The notes beneath the pieces were generated by a model that saw nothing but the letters and a program-made list of their open reading frames with translations, searched no databases and was not told where the DNA came from. From assembly GCA_964550975.1 (NCBI GenBank), contig CAZKAY010000005.1:1-24000 (forward strand): a stretch of 24,000 bases of DNA, given 5' to 3'. Positions 2,213 through 23,324 of the stretch are shown here, one piece after another (positions within the stretch are counted from its first letter, which is position 1; each line of letters begins with the position of its first letter). The DNA is from an uncultured Thermoproteales archaeon (GTDB lineage Archaea; Thermoproteota; Thermoprotei; Thermofilales; B9-G17). The translations under genes were made by a program, and so were the position numbers.

Positions 2213-2307
2213 CGCCGGGGGTGGGATTTGAACCCACAAGACCATAAAGGTCACCAGGTGTCTTATATACTCGAGCCTGGCCCCTTACCTGATTCGGGCA
2301 CCCCGGC
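2213..2307 (-). tRNA. tRNA-Ser (anticodon CGA), class II, with a ~10-nt insert after position 37
   Basis: 95 nt. Acceptor GCCGGGG/CCCCGGC plus G, anticodon stem CCAGG/CCTGG enclosing CTCGAG-TATATAAGAC-A, long variable arm GACC-TTTAT-GGTC, T arm GTGGG-TTCAAAT-CCCAC. Confidence 0.85.
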
Positions 2308-2311
2308 TTAA

Positions 2312-2385
2312 CGGGCCCGGTGGGATTTGAACCCACGACCTACGGCTTAGGAGGCCGCTGCGCTATCCTTCTGCGCTACGGGCCC
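2312..2385 (-). tRNA. tRNA-Arg (anticodon CCT), no intron
   Basis: 74-nt cloverleaf: GGGCCCG TA GCGC-AGAAGGATA-GCGC A GCGGC-CTCCTAA-GCCGT AGGTC GTGGG-TTCAAAT-CCCAC CGGGCCC G. It lies only 4 nt upstream of tRNA-Ser(CGA). Confidence 0.9.
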
Positions 2386-5746: not shown

Positions 5747-6592
5747 ATGAAGGTTGGAATTACCGGTAATCTTAAAGTTTATCAGATTATTGAAAGCATA
5801 ATTAGAATTCTAGATGAGATGAGTATAGAGTATGTGATTGACAGTGATTTCAAATATTTTTTAAAAAGGGGGGTCCTTCCATTTGAAAATCTTTTTAAAA
5901 TGAATGATATAGATATCCTTTTAATAGTTGGAGGCGATGGCACAGTACTAAGAAAAGTTAAAAAAATGCCTAAAAAGAATCCACCTATATTAGGTATAAA
6001 TACGGGGACTGTGGGTTTTTTGCTTGAAATAAAACCAGAACAAATAAGAGATGCTCTTACAAGGATTATAAAGAAAAAGTATTATATAGATGAGAGAAGC
6101 AAGTTGTCAGTAAGACTTCCTTCTCGAAAAAATTTTGAAGTATTAAATGAATTTTTAATAACTTCTTATCGCATAGGAAAGGCTATAAGACTATCTGTCA
6201 ACGATCAAGATGGTCAAGAGATTTTTAAGGGACGTGTAGATGGATTAATAGTATCTTCAACCACAGGATCTACGGGTCATGCTTTATCTGCAGGAGGACC
6301 TATAATTGATCCAAAATTAGACGTAATATTAATACTTACAATAGCTTCTATGACGCTTTTCTCTCGTCCCATAATTTTACCTATTAATTCAATTATATCA
6401 ATAAAAATACTAAGTCCTAAATGTGTAATTATAGGAGATGGATGGTTAATAGATATTCTAAATAAGGGAGATATAATCAAAGTATTTAGATCGCCTACAA
6501 AAGTTAAGTTCATAAGGTTTTCAAAAAATTTTTATGAGAAAATAATAAGGAGATCCGGAGGAGGCAACTATATTCTTCAGGAAATTGGGTAA
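5747..6592 (+). CDS. nadK: NAD kinase
   Basis: 281-aa ORF with the motifs VGGDGTVLR (GGDGT) and SSTTGSTGHALSAGGPI typical of ATP-NAD kinases. Confidence 0.9.
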   Translation: MKVGITGNLKVYQIIESIIRILDEMSIEYVIDSDFKYFLKRGVLPFENLFKMNDIDILLIVGGDGTVLRKVKKMPKKNPPILGINTGTVGFLLEIKPEQIRDALTRIIKKKYYIDERSKLSVRLPSRKNFEVLNEFLITSYRIGKAIRLSVNDQDGQEIFKGRVDGLIVSSTTGSTGHALSAGGPIIDPKLDVILILTIASMTLFSRPIILPINSIISIKILSPKCVIIGDGWLIDILNKGDIIKVFRSPTKVKFIRFSKNFYEKIIRRSGGGNYILQEIG

Positions 6593-7025: not shown

Positions 7026-7113
7026 TGGGCCCGGTGGGACTTGAACCCACGATTCGGGCTTCAACAGTCCCCCGCCACGTCAGGGCGATGTCATGCCGCT
7101 AGACTACGGGCAG
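7026..7113 (-). tRNA. tRNA-Val (anticodon GAC) with ~16 extra nt between anticodon stem and T stem and an unpaired 5' CU
   Basis: The reverse complement reads CTGCCCG TA GTCT-AGCGGCA-TGAC A TCGCC-CTGACGT-GGCGG GGGACTGTTGAAGCCCGAATC GTGGG-TTCAAGT-CCCAC CGGGCCC A. There is no anticodon-loop intron. The 21-nt variable region is too long for a class I tRNA. Confidence 0.8.
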
Positions 7114-7218
7114 TAATTAATAAGCAACATGTAATATATGAATTTTATGCTACCAATTGAGGAAAACTTAATAAATGACTAATTCATTTGTCTCCTAAGA
7201 ATTAGTGCTGAGGGATGT

Positions 7219-7688: not shown

Positions 7689-8024
7689 ATGGCTAGAAAT
7701 ATTGGAATACCCGGAATTCAACCTCCTAAGGAGTCTTGTAATGACCCACTATGTCCATTTCATGGAAAACTATCAGTCAGGGGAATAATGCTAGAAGGTA
7801 AAGTAATCAGGAAAAAAATGTCTAAAACTATTGTAGTTAGCCATGAATATCTACATTACGTGCGAAAATATAGAAGATACGAGAAAAGAAGGAAGAAAAT
7901 ACATGCTCATTTACCGCCTTGTATTAAAGTTAAAGAAGGAGATAATGTAATTATAGGTGAGTGCAGACCTATATCTAAATCTGTATCTTTTGTAGTTCTA
8001 GGAAAAGGTGGTAGAAATGGCTAA
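7689..8024 (+). CDS. rps17: 30S ribosomal protein uS17 (S17P)
   Basis: 111-aa [19 protein letters not shown]...HAH...[17 protein letters not shown] is typical of archaeal S17. A GTGAT SD-like motif lies upstream. Confidence 0.9.
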
Positions 8025-8442
8025 ACGTGGAATAAAAATGGGGGGTAGAGTTTTTCATTTACATATTACTCCTGGAATAAATGTGGAAAGCATAGTTAAA
8101 GTAACTGATAATTCTGGAGCACAAACTGCTAGAGTTATAGGAGTTTTAGGAAAAAAGACGGTGAGAAGGAGGATTCCAAGTGCCGGAATAGGAGACATTG
8201 TTGTAGTATCTATTCAAACTGGTAAATTAGAGTTAAGAAGACAAATTATGCATGCAGTAGTAGTTAGACAAAGAAAACCATATAGAAGGCTCGATGGTAC
8301 ATGGATATGCTTTGAAGATAATGCTGTTGTTTTATTAACAGCAGAAGGCGAGCCTAAAGGAACAGAAATTAAAGGTCCCATAGCTAAGGAGGCAGCCGAA
8401 AGATGGCCCAAGTTATCTAATATAGCTTCTATAATTGTTTAA
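8017..8442 (+). CDS. rpl14: 50S ribosomal protein uL14 (L14P)
   Basis: [17 protein letters not shown]...GDIVVVS...[12 protein letters not shown] matches L14. The ATG at 8017 (MAKRGIK...) is preferred over the GTG at 8008. It overlaps the S17 stop by 8 nt. Confidence 0.9.
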
Positions 8443-8454
8443 AATGAAGTTACC

Positions 8455-8964
8455 ATGATAGAGACTAAGATAATCGAAAGAGAAGTTTTTATTCAAAACA
8501 AAGATGAGGGAAGTCGATTTTATAACAATGGATATGGTATATGGTGTGAACAAGGGCTAAAGCTTTCATTAGTAGAGGCGTTATACCTAGTTGAGAAGGG
8601 AGAAATAGTTATAAAAGATGAAAATGATAAAACTTTGACATTAAAAGATATAGTAAACCTATTTTCAAAAATGGATAAAAAATTCTGGTTAAAGTATTCT
8701 ATATATAATGATTTGAAAAAGAGAGGATTTAACGTTAAACCAGGTTTTTCAGAGGAGGAGATAGAATTTTTAATGGGAGAGGGAGGTAAGAAGTTTTCAT
8801 TTAATTATATAGTAATTGGATTAGAAGAGGGAGTAAAATTGGATTTTAATAGTTTAACACAAATGGTGGATGAAGCATTAAGGTCTCAAAAGGAATTAAT
8901 ACTTGCAATTATAGATAAAGAAGGAAATATTTCTTACTATACTGTTACTAAACTAATAAGATAA
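8455..8964 (+). CDS. tRNA-splicing endonuclease family protein, probably the non-catalytic (structural, beta) subunit
   Basis: 169 aa. LSLVEALYL, YNDLKKRGFNVKPG and ELILAIIDKEGNISYYTV align with M. jannaschii EndA as I recall it. The positions of the catalytic Tyr and His read M and F here (IEFLMGEG, KKFSFNY), while the Lys position is kept. Confidence 0.7.
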   Translation: MIETKIIEREVFIQNKDEGSRFYNNGYGIWCEQGLKLSLVEALYLVEKGEIVIKDENDKTLTLKDIVNLFSKMDKKFWLKYSIYNDLKKRGFNVKPGFSEEEIEFLMGEGGKKFSFNYIVIGLEEGVKLDFNSLTQMVDEALRSQKELILAIIDKEGNISYYTVTKLIR

Positions 8965-8965
8965 G

Positions 8966-9061
8966 CGCCGCGGGTGGGATTTGAACCCACGAGGCCTTTC
9001 GGCCAAGGGGCTCGCCAGTTTTTAGCAACCCCTCGCCCTAACCTGACTAGGCGACCGCGGC
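8966..9061 (-). tRNA. tRNA-Ser (anticodon GCT), class II, with a ~11-nt anticodon-loop intron
   Basis: 96 nt. GCCGCGG/CCGCGGC plus G, anticodon stem AGGGG/CCCCT enclosing TTGCTA-AAAACTGGCGA-G, variable arm GGCC-GAAA-GGCC, T arm GTGGG-TTCAAAT-CCCAC. It starts 2 nt beyond the stop codon of the EndA-like gene on the opposite strand. Confidence 0.85.
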
Positions 9062-10621: not shown

Positions 10622-10746
10622 CTTCTCACCTCTTCTTAATTATTACAACAATCCTCTATAAGTAAATTTCGTTCATCAAAGATGAAAGTTTCTCTACTAT
10701 TTTTGTAACTATTCCTCGCATTTATTAGTATTTTCAATGGGAAAAA

Positions 10747-10755
10747 TTTATATTT
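10747..10755 (+). promoter_or_regulatory. TATA-like box (TTTATATTT) with an upstream purine-rich BRE-like GGGAAAAA for tRNA-Val(TAC)
   Basis: Centred about 27 nt upstream of G10778 (third nucleotide of the predicted tRNA) and 25 nt upstream of C10776. Confidence 0.45.
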
Positions 10756-10775
10756 CACAACTTACGATATTTATT

Positions 10776-10864
10776 CTGCCCGTAGTCTAGTGGTTAGGAT
10801 TTCACTCTTACGAGGATTAACATTAAGATAGGTGAGGACCCCGGTTCGAATCCGGGCGGGCCCA
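10776..10864 (+). tRNA. tRNA-Val (anticodon TAC) with a 17-nt intron at 37/38 and an unpaired 5' CU
   Basis: CTGCCCG TA GTCT-AGTGGTTA-GGAT T TCACT-CTTACG[AGGATTAACATTAAGAT]A-GGTGA GGAC CCCGG-TTCGAAT-CCGGG CGGGCCC A. Confidence 0.8.
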
Positions 10865-10958: not shown

Positions 10959-11672
10959 TTGTCTGAAAGTATTTTTGACAACATATGGATAGTATTATAT
11001 GAACCTATCTATGAAATAAACATAGGCTATATAGCTAGATGTATGAAGAATTTCTCTCTAAGAAATTTATTTCTTGTAAATCCTATAACTATTATAGGTT
11101 CAACAGCTTTCAAGTACGCGTCAAAGGCAAATGATATTCTTGAAAATGTTAAAATAGTAGATTCTATTAAAAAAATATTCGATGAAACCGATTTCATTGT
11201 AGGTACAACAGGTAAAGTCGGTGGGCCTCGAAATATCGTTAGAAGATCGGTTTCTCCAGAAGTTTTTGCAAAAAATGTTAGTAAAATAAATGGGATAGTT
11301 TCAATAATTTTTGGTAGAGAGGATATCGGTTTACCCAACAACATTTTAGCTCAATGTGATATAATTATAAATATAAAGACGGATCCAAAGTATTCGATAC
11401 TTAATATTTCTCATGCAGCAGCTATAATTTTTTATGAGATCTTTAAGTACTATAAGCCCAGAAAAATAAAGAAAATATCTTCTGAATATCAATTGAAAAT
11501 ACTTGAGAGAAAAATATCATCAATTTTAGAGGAAATTAATTTGTCTGAACGCGAGAGAATTCGTGCAAAATTAGTATTTAAAAGAGTACTTGGAAGAGCG
11601 TTTTTACAAAAAGATGAGATAGGGGTTTTATTAAATATGTTTAAGAAAATTGAAAGAAAAATAATGAAGTAA
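10959..11672 (+). CDS. SPOUT-class RNA 2'-O-methyltransferase (TrmJ/TrmH family)
   Basis: 237-aa ORF with a TTG start. IVLYEPIYEINIGYIARCMKNF, IIFGREDIGLPN and SILNISHAAAIIFYE match the SpoU/TrmJ motifs. Confidence 0.8.
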   Translation: MSESIFDNIWIVLYEPIYEINIGYIARCMKNFSLRNLFLVNPITIIGSTAFKYASKANDILENVKIVDSIKKIFDETDFIVGTTGKVGGPRNIVRRSVSPEVFAKNVSKINGIVSIIFGREDIGLPNNILAQCDIIINIKTDPKYSILNISHAAAIIFYEIFKYYKPRKIKKISSEYQLKILERKISSILEEINLSERERIRAKLVFKRVLGRAFLQKDEIGVLLNMFKKIERKIMK

Positions 11673-15937: not shown

Positions 15938-16024
15938 GGGGCCGTAGTCTAGCTTGGTATGATGCGTGGCTTGGGTCTAAGGCAAGAACCCACGTGGACC
16001 GGGGTTCAAATCCCCGCGGCCCCA
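15938..16024 (+). tRNA. tRNA-Pro (anticodon TGG) with a ~13-nt anticodon-loop intron
   Basis: GGGGCCG ... CGTGG-CTTGGG[TCTAAGGCAAGAA]C-CCACG TGGAC CGGGG-TTCAAAT-CCCCG CGGCCCC A. Confidence 0.85.
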
Positions 16025-16046
16025 TAATTACTACTAAGTGGGAAAT

Positions 16047-16520: not shown

Positions 16521-17825
16521 ATGCGCATGGAGTTTAGGAAGGGTCAAAAGATAAAAGTTGAGGGGCCAGCATCTCTCTTGATAAAAGATGGAGTTCTATG
16601 GGTTTTTGGAAAAGAGATTCGTAGCAGGGAAAGAATAACAATTCCCATTGATAAGACTATTCTGCTTGAAGTTTTAGAAGATACTATAGCTGAAGTAAGC
16701 TTAGGCGAAAATGCTACAATAGATAAAATAGAAGATCCTATAATTCCATATGAGTGGAGAAGCACCATAGAGAATATATATTATGATATTAAACCACTTA
16801 AAATACTGATACTTGGAGGGACGAACACCGGGAAATCCTTATTTACAATTCATTTAGCTAACTTTTATTCAGCAGAAAATGAAAAGGTAGGCGTTATCGA
16901 TGAGGATTTAGGGCAATCTGAAATAGGACCCCCAACGGTTATAGGTAGTACATTAATAACTAAACCTATAACAAGTTTTTCTCAAAGTAGATTATATGAT
17001 GGATATTTTATAGGTACGATTGATCCAGAGAATGTTACAGAAAATATACTTGTTGGTGTGAAAATATTACTAGAAAAAATCCTTAAAGAAGATCCAAGTG
17101 TAGTAATAATAAATACTGATGGCTGGATATTCGGGGAGAAGGCTAGAAGATTTAAGATAAATATGATAAATCTGCTAAGACCCGAGGTAGTTGTAGCTAT
17201 TCAAAGATTCAATGAAATAGAACATATAATTAGACCCTTTGAGAGACAGAAATGGGTTCAAATTATAAGATTATTAGCTCCAACCATTTTAAAACCAAGA
17301 TCACCAGAGTTAAGGAAACTTATCAGAGAATCTATGTATATAAGATATTTAAAAGATTTAAAAATAATAAAAGTAAATATACACAAAATCCCGTTGATGT
17401 TTTCAAGTTATGCTTCTTCATTTCCACTTCCTTTAAAATCTATGGAGAAAATTAGATCTTCTCTCAAGGAGGATTCATTTAAAAAAATAGAATATATTGG
17501 GATGAATTCCGAGGAACTAATAGTAGTCATAAATGATATGAGCATTAAAGATATCTTAAATGATATTTTAAGAAGCATGTTTACCGACAGAAAGATTAAA
17601 ATTATAAAGAAAGGAGAGGAGCACGGAATAATCGTAGGAATATATGATTATAATAACAAATTCTTAGGTATAGGATACATTGATGAAATATATTATAAGC
17701 GAGGGATTATTAAGATAAGGGCAGGAATTAGGTCTTCAGATACAGTTGGACTAATATGCTTAGGTCAACTTAAACTAGATGAAAAATATAATGAAAGAAA
17801 AAGGATAAAGATGTGGGATCTATAG
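16521..17825 (+). CDS. Clp1/Grc3-family polynucleotide 5'-kinase
   Basis: 434-aa ORF with P-loop ILGGTNTGKS, DEDLGQSEIGPP and INTDGW, the characteristic Clp1 motifs. An N-terminal beta-rich domain precedes the kinase core. Confidence 0.75.
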   Translation: MRMEFRKGQKIKVEGPASLLIKDGVLWVFGKEIRSRERITIPIDKTILLEVLEDTIAEVSLGENATIDKIEDPIIPYEWRSTIENIYYDIKPLKILILGGTNTGKSLFTIHLANFYSAENEKVGVIDEDLGQSEIGPPTVIGSTLITKPITSFSQSRLYDGYFIGTIDPENVTENILVGVKILLEKILKEDPSVVIINTDGWIFGEKARRFKINMINLLRPEVVVAIQRFNEIEHIIRPFERQKWVQIIRLLAPTILKPRSPELRKLIRESMYIRYLKDLKIIKVNIHKIPLMFSSYASSFPLPLKSMEKIRSSLKEDSFKKIEYIGMNSEELIVVINDMSIKDILNDILRSMFTDRKIKIIKKGEEHGIIVGIYDYNNKFLGIGYIDEIYYKRGIIKIRAGIRSSDTVGLICLGQLKLDEKYNERKRIKMWDL

Positions 17826-21547: not shown

Positions 21548-21940
21548 ATGAGCAGAATAATCCTAGAAGTTGTTGAGAGAAAGGCTATTAAATTAATAAA
21601 GGAGACCGGATCAATACTTCAAATAGACTTAGCTAAAAAACTAGATATAGATCCTCGCAGTTGTTCTAAAATAGTAAGGACGTTAGAGCGTCGTGGTTTA
21701 ATTAAGAGAAAAGCAATAATGTACAAAGGTAGAAGGACCTATATGCTAACTCCAACTAAACGTTTACTAGAAGAGTTTTCAATCGATCCATTAATAATGG
21801 ATCTGCCCTGTTTATTCTGTCCATATATGGAGGAGTGTTACGAAGGTATAAGGATATCTCCAGAGAAATGTAAAACTATAGAAAAATGGTTGCTTGAGAA
21901 ATGTGAAAAGAAAAAACAGCTTGAAAAATATGATAGATGA
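21548..21940 (+). CDS. Winged-helix DNA-binding protein with a Cys-rich C-terminus (possible TFE-beta / RPC39-like factor)
   Basis: 130 aa. The wHTH core is QIDLAKKLDIDPRSCSKIVRTLERRGLIKRK. The C-terminal CLFCPYMEEC...C...C cluster could bind metal or Fe-S. The TFE-beta assignment is an inference from domain architecture and position next to tfb only. Confidence 0.5.
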   Translation: MSRIILEVVERKAIKLIKETGSILQIDLAKKLDIDPRSCSKIVRTLERRGLIKRKAIMYKGRRTYMLTPTKRLLEEFSIDPLIMDLPCLFCPYMEECYEGIRISPEKCKTIEKWLLEKCEKKKQLEKYDR

Positions 21941-23324
21941 AATTTTAAGCGTGGTTGCTAAGAAGATTGAACCAAATGAGGAGGAGAAACTAAGAATACA
22001 AGACACTGCTAATAAGATAGTATCAATATTAAAAGAATTGTGTAAAAAGCAGGGATTTGACATTAAGGTTGAAATAGGAGGATCTATAGGTAAAGGAACG
22101 TGGCTTAGCGGGGAAGCGGATATAGATATATTTATGCTTTTTCCCTTAAGTATTGAGTTAGATAGAATGATTTCTTTAGGTCTTAATATAGCTAGGAAAA
22201 CTACTGAGATAGTCGGCGGGGTACCCGTTGAAAAATATGCACAACACCCTTATATTGAAACATATATTAATGGGATGACAATCGATATAGTACCTGCATA
22301 TCAAATTGAGCATCCAAGTCAGATAAAAACAGCTGCGGATAGAAGCTCACTTCATTTAAGATATGTAAATTCTAAGTTAAATGATAGAATGCGAAAAGAA
22401 ATAAGAATTTTAAAAAGATTTCTTAAAGGTATAAATGTATATGGATCGGAGATAAAAACACAGGGGTTCTCCGGATATTTGTGTGAGCTTTTGATAATAT
22501 ATTACGGGAGCTTCATAAACTTGCTTAGAAATGCTATTAAATGGATTCCATGGAGAACATATATAGATATAGAAAATTTTTATGGAGGAGATATGCAGAA
22601 AATATTTAAAAAATTTAATAGCCCCATTGTAGTAATAGATCCTGTTGATAAAAATAGAAATGCAGCAGCTGCGGTTTCAATGAAAAAATTGTTGGAATTT
22701 AAGACAGCGTCAAAATTTTTTTTAAATAAACCTTCTTTTAAATTCTTTTTCCCCGAAGCCACAAAGCCTATTACGTTAAATGAGTTTCAGCAAATAATAT
22801 ATTCGAGGAAAACTTATGTAGTATGTCTTTTACTTCCAATAAAAATTATGTCACCAGATATAATATGGGGTATTGGATTTAAAGTTTCTAGAAAACTGAG
22901 AAATATATTAGAGAAATATGACTACAGAGTACTAGATATTGGTGTATGGACAGATGAGAGAGAGATATTAGCTATACTATTTGAGGTAGAAAATATTTCT
23001 CTACCTTATGTTAAAAAACATCTAGGCCCGCCAGTCGGGTCGGTAAATGAGATGGATTTTATAAAAAAATATTTTCATAAGGGAGAAATGGTCGCGGGTC
23101 CATTTATAGAAGGAGGGAGATGGGTTGTATATAAGCCGAGAAGGTACGTATCTATAAGAGACTTGTTGCTAGAATATGTTTTTCAAATAAGTAATGTAAG
23201 AAAATTTTTAAGTAAAGATAAAATATATTTTCTCCTTAATGAAGAAGTTTTAAAAACAGTTAAAGATAAATCCTTTTTAATTTATTTAAAGGAATGGCTT
23301 ATTAAAAAATATAAATGGCTTTAA
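21930..23324 (+). CDS. cca: CCA-adding enzyme (archaeal class I tRNA nucleotidyltransferase)
   Basis: GGSIGKGTWLSGEADIDIFMLFP, HPYIE, DIVPAY, AADRSSLH and GFSGYLCELLIIYYGSF align with the archaeal CCA-adding enzyme. The ATG at 21930 is preferred over the TTG at 21894. None of the 8 tRNA genes encodes a CCA tail. Confidence 0.9.
   Translation: MIDEILSVVAKKIEPNEEEKLRIQDTANKIVSILKELCKKQGFDIKVEIGGSIGKGTWLSGEADIDIFMLFPLSIELDRMISLGLNIARKTTEIVGGVPVEKYAQHPYIETYINGMTIDIVPAYQIEHPSQIKTAADRSSLHLRYVNSKLNDRMRKEIRILKRFLKGINVYGSEIKTQGFSGYLCELLIIYYGSFINLLRNAIKWIPWRTYIDIENFYGGDMQKIFKKFNSPIVVIDPVDKNRNAAAAVSMKKLLEFKTASKFFLNKPSFKFFFPEATKPITLNEFQQIIYSRKTYVVCLLLPIKIMSPDIIWGIGFKVSRKLRNILEKYDYRVLDIGVWTDEREILAILFEVENISLPYVKKHLGPPVGSVNEMDFIKKYFHKGEMVAGPFIEGGRWVVYKPRRYVSIRDLLLEYVFQISNVRKFLSKDKIYFLLNEEVLKTVKDKSFLIYLKEWLIKKYKWL

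Follow-up and report, generated by a model that had tools for sequence, protein, structure and literature searches.

In a single archaeal population, the complete expected set of valine tRNA genes, with the anticodons UAC, GAC and CAC, lacks the first two nucleotides of the acceptor stem, G1 and G2. In the best-supported interpretation, a proposal to which we assign a probability of roughly one half, the 5'-truncated tRNAs encoded by these genes would be completed by a Thg1-like activity that adds G2 and then G1 in a templated 3'-5' reaction, such that the whole tRNA-Val family would become usable only after two G's have been added in the 3'-to-5' direction. Archaeal genomes usually carry one gene per Val anticodon. 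Two of the three genes are located in the window, that is, the whole 24,000-nucleotide stretch of DNA that was analyzed, which is archaeal, with a G+C content of 32%, and encompasses genes for GatD, Cdc6/Orc1, TFB, Spt5, SRP RNA, the tRNA-splicing endonuclease EndA and a CCA-adding enzyme; the third gene is found on another contig. The two genes in the window comprise the following features:

10778..10864, plus strand: tRNA-Val(UAC), encoded part from G3 to A73; cmscan with RF00005, 38.6 bits over 10776-10864; anticodon TAC at 10809-10811
10776..10777, plus strand: CT dinucleotide at tRNA nucleotides 1-2 of Val(UAC), with no pairing to C72 and C71; both pairs are non-standard in Rfam
10857..10864, plus strand: 3' acceptor strand CGGGCCC and discriminator A73 of Val(UAC); C71-C72 correspond to 10862-10863 and have no encoded partner
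10813..10829, plus strand: 17-nt intron AGGATTAACATTAAGAT of Val(UAC) at the canonical position 37/38, read from the sequence
7026..7111, minus strand: tRNA-Val(GAC), encoded part from G3 to A73; cmscan with RF00005, 38.4 bits over 7026-7113; ARAGORN, Val(gac)
7112..7113, minus strand: CT dinucleotide at tRNA nucleotides 1-2 of Val(GAC); TT in 4 of 11 assemblies
7053..7068, minus strand: putative non-canonical intron of 16 nt, ACTGTTGAAGCCCGAA, located in the variable loop (~46/47) of tRNA-Val(GAC)

The Val(UAC) gene (10776-10864, plus strand) reads CTGCCCG TA GTCT AGTGGTTA GGAT T TCACT CTTACG[A..17 nt..]A GGTGA GGAC CCCGG TTCGAAT CCGGG CGGGCCC A. In both window genes, the 5' strand CTGCCCG faces the 3' strand CGGGCCC-A, and only the pairs 3:70 to 7:66 are encoded; the 15-nt 5' end, CTGCCCGTAGTCTAG, is also common to the two. 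All three Val genes possess the D, anticodon and T arms and the discriminator of the Rfam RF00005 cloverleaf, scoring 38.6, 38.4 and 52.7 bits for UAC, GAC and CAC, respectively, against a gathering score of 29, and in all three the seven acceptor pairs are incompletely encoded, with 1:72 and 2:71 missing. These are the only non-standard pairs in the alignments of both Val(UAC) and Val(GAC) to the tRNA model, which, in the case of Val(CAC), aligns positions 3-68 only. Thus, several claims of the initial annotation of this DNA, namely, the lack of pairing at 1:72 and 2:71 in Val(UAC), the 15-mer shared by the two Val genes, the 17-nt intron at 37/38 and the T arm CCCGG TTCGAAT CCGGG, are borne out. 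Where it spoke of a C1-U2 mismatch, the absence of pairing stands, but the two bases are better described as missing from a gene that begins at G3.

The intron of Val(UAC), when inspected by eye, contains a CTTA/TAAG central helix between the 3-nt bulges CGA and ATA; a scripted search placed the bulge-helix-bulge (BHB) motif in a register shifted by 1 nt. In the Rfam alignment, the variable loop of Val(GAC) accommodates an insertion of ~17 nt, and the putative intron at this site can be drawn, again by eye, with a CGGG/CCCG central helix flanked by the bulges GGA and AAT; it was not reported by the strict BHB script, in which outer helices of at least 2 bp were required. The introns also affect automated calls: ARAGORN labels Val(UAC) as Arg(ACG) and, by comparison with Rfam, mislabels Ser(GCU) as Pyl(CUA), both artefacts of the introns, and misses Ser(CGA). 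Seven tRNAs in the window were identified by Rfam, and Pro was added by ARAGORN.

The third isoacceptor, Val(CAC), lies on a contig (L035) that also has 32% G+C and that belongs to the same population. The gene reads TTGCCCGTAGTCTAGTGG...CGGGCCCA and, with TTGCCCG...CGGGCCCA as its acceptor strands, has the same 5' defect. The locus that contains it, with FEN1, DUF371, tRNA-Val and rpoE, is identical in 11 assemblies, and contigs of this type co-occur with contigs of the window type in GBSed 3300003332, ERZ940666, ERZ27245482 and ERZ23491060. The similarity pattern of the encoded proteins, 99% identity followed by a drop to ~60%, is the same as in the window. Of the 120 matches to GCCCGTNGTCTAGYGG in a metagenome scan, 64 had a recognizable T arm and a complementary 3' strand; 63 of these 64 tRNA genes pair at both 1:72 and 2:71, the sole exception being the Val(CAC) gene described here.

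The defect is restricted to valine. The six other tRNAs for which the initial annotation had reported perfect 7-bp acceptor stems in the window (Trp-CCA, Ser-CGA, Arg-CCU, Ser-GCU, Ile-GAU and Pro-UGG) indeed have them, and all nine non-valine tRNAs of the organism that were compared (Trp, two Ser, two Arg, Ile, Pro, Lys and Tyr) are normal. In Arg-CCU, Arg-UCG and Lys-CUU, the very stem that the Val genes would be expected to form, GGGCCCG/CGGGCCC, is complete. The defect is thus present in 3 of 3 Val genes and in 0 of 9 other tRNAs, a distribution that has a probability of 1 in 220 under random assignment.

For comparison across samples, the locus was recovered by exact-protein look-ups in JGI, ENA and Logan records from different samples, including JGI 3300003332 from Guaymas Basin sediment, ERZ940666 from a hydrothermal vent, several ERZ272... 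and DOMB18 assemblies, and Logan runs. The Val(UAC) gene, with CT followed by GCCCG..., is identical in sequence in all 8 assemblies that cover it. In Val(GAC), the dinucleotide is CT in 7 assemblies and TT in 4, and the 5' end from G3 onwards is constant in 11 of 11; in Val(CAC), the dinucleotide is TT in all 11. Therefore, the missing GG is not an assembly error, the reading being the same in 8-11 independent assemblies. The initial annotation had made its case depend on resequencing of the 5' end, and the independent assemblies, a check of this kind, are all without GG.

Across the population, "position 1" of the Val genes is C or T and "position 2" is always T, with G in neither. By contrast, C71-C72-A73 is unchanging in the three paralogues and in all assemblies. 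This combination of varying 5' bases and fixed C71-C72 is expected if added G's pair with the 3' bases, whereas the encoded 5' bases lie outside the tRNA. Elsewhere, the paralogues diverge, with differences in their T arms, D loops and introns. Each gene is nearly invariant over 8-11 assemblies, the frequency of changes not exceeding that in the flanks.

The phenomenon is known from one species-level population only. The GatD protein encoded in the window shares 99% identity with a protein from an ENA contig of 41 kb, and its next relatives show 60-64% identity; the GatD cluster includes RLE73521.1, annotated as "MAG: Thermoprotei archaeon", and the contigs of the population include ERZ940666 k127_25916 and GBSed_10000355. 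Orthologous Val loci were sought in the relatives found in the GatD scan (identity of 62% or less), and no tRNA was present nearby; the contigs of the GatD homologues differ from the window in gene order and offer no Val locus for comparison. The contigs of relatives found via RpoE likewise lack the tRNA.

The position of the promoters is relevant for the interpretation of the CT dinucleotide. Those of the two window genes were read directly from the sequence:

10742..10754, plus strand: promoter of Val(UAC), consisting of a BRE-like A-run (10742-10746) and the TATA octamer TTTATATT (10747-10754), AAAAA-TTTATATT
7135..7146, minus strand: promoter of Val(GAC), consisting of the A-run AAAA (7146-7143) and the TATA octamer TTCATATA (7142-7135)

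The center of the TATA element of Val(UAC) is ~27 nt upstream of G10778, as originally proposed for this gene, and the motif is retained in all assemblies, with divergence appearing only further upstream. A similar arrangement of an A-run and an A+T-rich octamer (BRE/TATA) precedes 10 of the 12 RNA genes that we examined in this organism; the remaining two, Ser(CGA) and Tyr, lack a separate promoter and follow a preceding tRNA at a distance of 4 nt, which implies that a 5'-processing activity is present. When counted from the last A of the A-run, the spacing is:

Trp, Ser(GCU), Lys and SRP RNA: 31 nt to the first G of the RNA
Arg(CCU): 32 nt to the first G of the RNA
5S rRNA: ~32 nt to the G closing helix I
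Val(UAC), Val(GAC) and Val(CAC): 30 nt to "position 1", 31 nt to T2 and 32 nt to G3
Arg(UCG): 29 nt to G1
Ile: 35 nt to G1
Pro: 41 nt to G1

In archaea, RNA polymerase initiates ~26-27 nt beyond the TATA center and favors a purine preceded by a pyrimidine. Given the TATA spacing and a purine preceded by T, G3 is the expected start, and transcription of the Val genes most likely begins at this nucleotide. The "CT" is then probably not part of the tRNA at all but represents the -2/-1 initiator positions or promoter-proximal spacer. The spacing from the A-run fits a start at G3 without proving it. In the eight promoters that are close to the RNA 5' end, this distance ranges from 29 to 32 nt, and "position 1" of the Val genes, at 30 nt, falls inside this range; the value for Arg(UCG) shows that there is some play in the spacing. 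We therefore rejected promoter spacing as a discriminator for Val, considering the 29 nt of Arg-UCG and the 30 nt to Val "position 1".

From the observed anatomy of these genes, their conservation, the restriction of the defect to valine and the lack of a cis exon (see below), we infer a pathway with a transcription start inside the tRNA, a nucleotide addition step and an enzyme that performs it. Transcription beginning at G3 would yield a leaderless, 5'-triphosphorylated pre-tRNA-Val with five acceptor pairs and with C71-C72-A73 as a 3' overhang; alternatively, transcription might start slightly upstream, in which case RNase P or fraying would expose the G3 end. The splicing endonuclease and a ligase would take out the intron, and CCA, which is encoded by none of the tRNA genes here, would be added. 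The recessed 5' end would then be filled in the 3'-to-5' direction, with G2 placed opposite C71 and G1 opposite C72 (10862-10863 in Val(UAC), the proposed template), and A73 would end the addition after G1. The predicted mature 5' end is GGGCCCGTAGTCTAG followed by Val-specific sequence, for example, GGGCCCGTAGTCTAGTGGTTAGGATTTCACTCTTAC, where the genome reads CTGCCCG....

Two of the proteins that such a pathway would involve are encoded in the window:

8455..8964, plus strand: tRNA-splicing endonuclease (EndA), Pfam tRNA_int_endo_N and tRNA_int_endo
21930..23324, plus strand: archaeal class I CCA-adding enzyme, 464 aa, Pfam NTP_transf_2, tRNA_NucTransf2 and CAA_C

Thg1-family 3'-5' polymerases are the only known enzymes that fill such ends. 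In all three Val genes, the defect (Y1-T2 opposite C72-C71) is of the kind expected in a substrate for 5'-editing or for repair by a Thg1-like protein (TLP): it falls within the first three nucleotides at the 5' end, the Watson-Crick replacements are dictated by an intact 3' strand, and the remainder of the stem is perfect. Pfam searches detected no Thg1/TLP domain (PF04446) among the ~75 genes in ~62 kb of this organism (the window and neighboring contigs). The Thg1-family entries in PDB are limited to eukaryotic Thg1, BtTLP and MaTLP, and none of these is crenarchaeal.

The simplest alternative to completion by a Thg1-like enzyme is that there is no repair, and that tRNA-Val matures in a frayed or shortened form, starting at G3 with a 5-bp stem or carrying an unpaired Y1-U2, which ValRS, the elongation factor and the ribosome tolerate. 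Indeed, nothing in the sequence requires repair, and the free variation of "position 1" is just as compatible with an unpaired base; furthermore, some functional tRNAs are known to contain a terminal mismatch, such as C1xA72 in the bacterial initiator tRNA. We nevertheless consider this possibility unlikely, although deserving of attention, because C71-C72 is strictly kept in three diverged paralogues despite having no encoded partner, and because all nine other tRNAs have the G+C-rich, perfect 7-bp stems that are expected for a hydrothermal habitat. To our knowledge, there is no cytosolic elongator tRNA with a 5-bp acceptor stem. We also considered, and rejected, the possibility that a 5-bp stem uses C71-C72-A73 itself in place of an added CCA, an arrangement that appears to conflict with tRNA geometry.

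The two G's could also be added post-transcriptionally by an enzyme other than a Thg1-like protein, for example, a ligase that joins an annealed GG dinucleotide, or a new 5' nucleotidyltransferase. Apart from the failure to find a TLP gene among the ~75 genes noted above, this possibility is favored by the presence, at the locus or on the contig, of genes for enzymes acting on RNA ends (a Clp1-like polynucleotide kinase, the CCA-adding enzyme and EndA) and for unannotated proteins of 359 and 445 aa. However, no such activity is known, whereas the required activity is already the exact property of TLPs, and the inspected DNA amounts to ~4% of the genome size that is typical of such archaea, so that the absence of a TLP means little; an alternative enzyme therefore seems improbable to us. 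Addition of the G's by reiterative transcription (slippage) was rejected because the template upstream of G3 is not C.

It is still more doubtful that the missing 5' nucleotides are brought in by a separate exon, in cis or in trans, through BHB splicing, one of the options listed in the initial annotation. The organism does possess a splicing endonuclease, canonical introns and a probable non-canonical intron in Val(GAC), and a "caat(t)GG" sequence is present ~37-41 nt upstream of both window Val genes. As a cis 5' exon, this sequence had to be rejected: six assemblies have AG in place of the GG upstream of Val(GAC), no GG occurs within 100 nt upstream of Val(CAC), where the divergent rpoE is only 48 nt away, helices for a BHB motif at T2|G3 are absent upstream, and a strong BRE/TATA at the standard distance would be contained within the intron, leaving no leader for pairing with a trans partner either. 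When the window, L006 and L035 were searched for the patterns CGGG-N4-GG and GG-N-CGGG, as well as for sequence complementary to the 5' end of the Val genes, matches were obtained only in coding regions and in the tRNAs themselves. Thus, neither of the hallmarks of an intron-disrupted or split tRNA gene, a BHB motif at the junction and a partner exon, was found in the sequence at hand, and we know of no precedent for a 2-nt tRNA exon.

Finally, the suggestion that the window genes are a pair of pseudogenes, that is, decaying or silent copies with intact Val genes elsewhere, is barely tenable: given that ~62 kb of the genome was seen, other copies are conceivable, but the same defect affects all three Val anticodons, with one gene per anticodon being the norm in archaea, and each gene retains a promoter that conforms to the consensus, the complete cloverleaf and an intron that can be spliced and is essentially invariant across 8-11 assemblies, none of which resembles the lost promoter or structure, relaxed conservation and intact paralogue of a tRNA pseudogene. 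Because Val(CAC) shows the identical defect, intact copies elsewhere are unlikely.

Thg1-like 3'-5' polymerases occur widely among archaea and bacteria, and in vitro they repair tRNAs with truncated 5' ends. The valine tRNAs of this population, an essential family whose acceptor stem can assume its standard form only after the addition of two G's opposite C71-C72, provide a concrete candidate for a substrate in vivo. If completion by a Thg1-like enzyme is confirmed, these tRNAs would be the first natural substrate set of an archaeal Thg1-like polymerase and the first case of tRNA 5' "editing" outside organelles. Reverse polymerization would then be built into routine tRNA biogenesis in a free-living lineage, and a promoter could be placed such that transcription starts within a tRNA. 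If, on the other hand, there is no repair, a hydrothermal-vent archaeon would be translating with 5-bp or doubly mismatched valine tRNAs, which would be equally unexpected.

Previous work provides a framework for these possibilities. Archaeal and bacterial TLPs prefer 5'-truncated tRNAs, add nucleotides under Watson-Crick templating, act on substrates other than tRNA-His and accept triphosphorylated transcripts (PMC3061083; PMC6471195), and a crenarchaeal TLP clade that includes Pyrobaculum aerophilum has been described (PMC3245924). The natural substrates of archaeal TLPs "remain to be identified" (PMC6471195), and, according to a 2024 paper, a process resembling 5'-editing "does not appear to occur" in bacteria and archaea (PMC11404450). 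Similarly, reviews published between 2010 and 2024 describe the natural TLP substrates as unknown and tRNA 5'-editing as apparently confined to protist mitochondria (PMC3061083; PMC6471195; PMC11404450). In the literature that we searched, the coverage of which is incomplete, no report of genomically 5'-truncated archaeal tRNA genes was found.

The Val genes share with the disrupted tRNA genes of archaea, those with non-canonical introns as well as the split, tri-split and permuted ones, the property that the mature sequence is not contained in one gene piece, but differ from these in having no BHB motif, complementary leader or partner exon for the 2 nt. A parallel with respect to transcription is provided by the leaderless tRNAs of Nanoarchaeum equitans, in which the promoter is at a fixed distance, transcription starts at the tRNA 5' end, and ppp-tRNAs are made without RNase P (PMC10100707). 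In the organism analyzed here, the first G similarly lies 31-32 nt past the A-run in Trp, Ser-GCU, Lys, Arg-CCU and SRP RNA. In N. equitans, however, the start is at +1 or -1 and never within the tRNA, and, unlike N. equitans, our organism must also process 5' ends, considering Ser-CGA and Tyr, located 4 nt behind a tRNA, and the longer spacers of Ile and Pro.

With respect to the addition step itself, the acquisition of G-1 by tRNA-His, which is catalyzed by Thg1/TLP and occurs opposite C73 in archaea, is likewise a post-transcriptional, C-templated 3'-5' addition of G (PMC6471195; PMC3245924). In that case, a single nucleotide is added beyond a complete stem in one tRNA species, whereas here two nucleotides would be added within the stem in three Val species. 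Similar genes are those subject to mitochondrial 5'-editing of the DdiTLP3 type in Acanthamoeba castellanii, Dictyostelium discoideum and other protists, in which, as in the Val genes, the first 1-3 encoded 5' nucleotides are unpaired with an intact 3' strand (PMC6471195; PMC11404450). In the protist mitochondria, the 3' strand dictates the corrected bases, and a Thg1/TLP 3'-5' polymerase fills them in; the Val genes are alike in form. The differences are that the main (cytosolic) translation system of an archaeon is concerned here rather than an organelle, that only the Val family is affected, and that, given the promoter position, the odd bases are probably never transcribed, so that excision would not be needed. 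The predicted Val substrate, without G1 and G2, with C72 and C71 as the template and with a 5'-triphosphate, also matches the substrates that MaTLP, BtTLP and IhTLP repair in vitro (PMC3061083; PMC6471195). Those substrates, however, were man-made, whereas the one predicted here would be encoded in the genome.

The valine tRNA with the CAC anticodon and an overlapping protein gene were located on a metagenome contig of 32% G+C (L035):

5857-6372, minus strand: gene for a DUF371 protein, convergent with tRNA-Val(CAC)
5872-5942, plus strand: tRNA-Val(CAC), same locus in L151-L160 from other assemblies

This is the third valine tRNA of the population represented by the window. Its sequence, TTGCCCG...CGGGCCCA, lacks an intron and is identical throughout 11 assemblies, and its spacing from the A-run/TATA element, counted from the last A of the run, is that of Val(UAC) and Val(GAC) in the window. 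The final 33 codons of the DUF371 reading frame, whose Pfam domain stops at residue 138, cross the tRNA gene antisense from end to end, with the stop codon lying within the tRNA promoter spacer.

A further contig of the same population (L148) and the window encode the following tRNAs:

L148 15684-15773, plus strand: tRNA-Arg(UCG)
L148 17886-18104, plus strand: tRNA pair Lys(CUU)-Tyr(GUA), 4-nt spacer
window 2213-2385, minus strand: tRNA pair Arg(CCU)-Ser(CGA), 4-nt spacer

The 5' end of tRNA-Arg(UCG) is intact (GGGCCCG), with only 29 nt separating the A-run/TATA element from G1, compared to 31-32 nt elsewhere. Initiation at the customary distance would fall on G2/G3, so that some transcripts of this tRNA might also be 5'-short. 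Judging from the gene arrangement, the organism must possess a 5'-processing nuclease because the two members of each tRNA pair lie only 4 nt apart and tRNA-Tyr(GUA), a 130-nt gene that begins with C1 and contains at least one long intron, has no promoter of its own.

Two additional tRNA features of the window are:

7053-7068, minus strand: insertion of ~16 nt in the variable loop of tRNA-Val(GAC)
15938-16025, plus strand: intron-containing tRNA-Pro(UGG), predicted by ARAGORN

The insertion is probably a non-canonical intron at ~46/47, given that a relaxed bulge-helix-bulge (helix CGGG/CCCG, bulges GGA and AAT) can form; one bulge base shows a G/A polymorphism. In the window, ARAGORN mislabelled two intron-containing tRNAs and did not detect Ser(CGA), whereas tRNA-Pro(UGG), which it identified, falls below the Rfam gathering score.

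The genomic surroundings include:

window 7689-8964, plus strand: ribosomal protein genes S17 and L14, directly followed by the tRNA-splicing endonuclease gene
L140 5265-6443 (also in contigs L006, L142 and L143; equivalent window site ~8964-8966): insertion of ~1.6 kb with a gene for a TnpB/Cas12f1-like protein (MJ0013 family)

This insertion, present in some strains, separates the endonuclease gene from the adjacent tRNA-Ser(GCU), which remains intact. About 30 kb (window 8455-8964, 10959-11672, 16521-17825 and 21930-23324; contig L137 12731-15716) holds many tRNA and RNA-end enzymes, including EndA, the CCA-adding enzyme, GatD/GatE, a SpoU-type methyltransferase encoded immediately after Val(UAC), and a Clp1-like polynucleotide kinase that weakly matches a PUA-like domain. 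The 359-aa protein overlapping the end of gatE has no Pfam match. The S17/L14 pair is located apart from the usual large ribosomal-protein operon, and gene order around GatD differs in relatives of ~60% identity, the latter suggesting a heavily rearranged genome.
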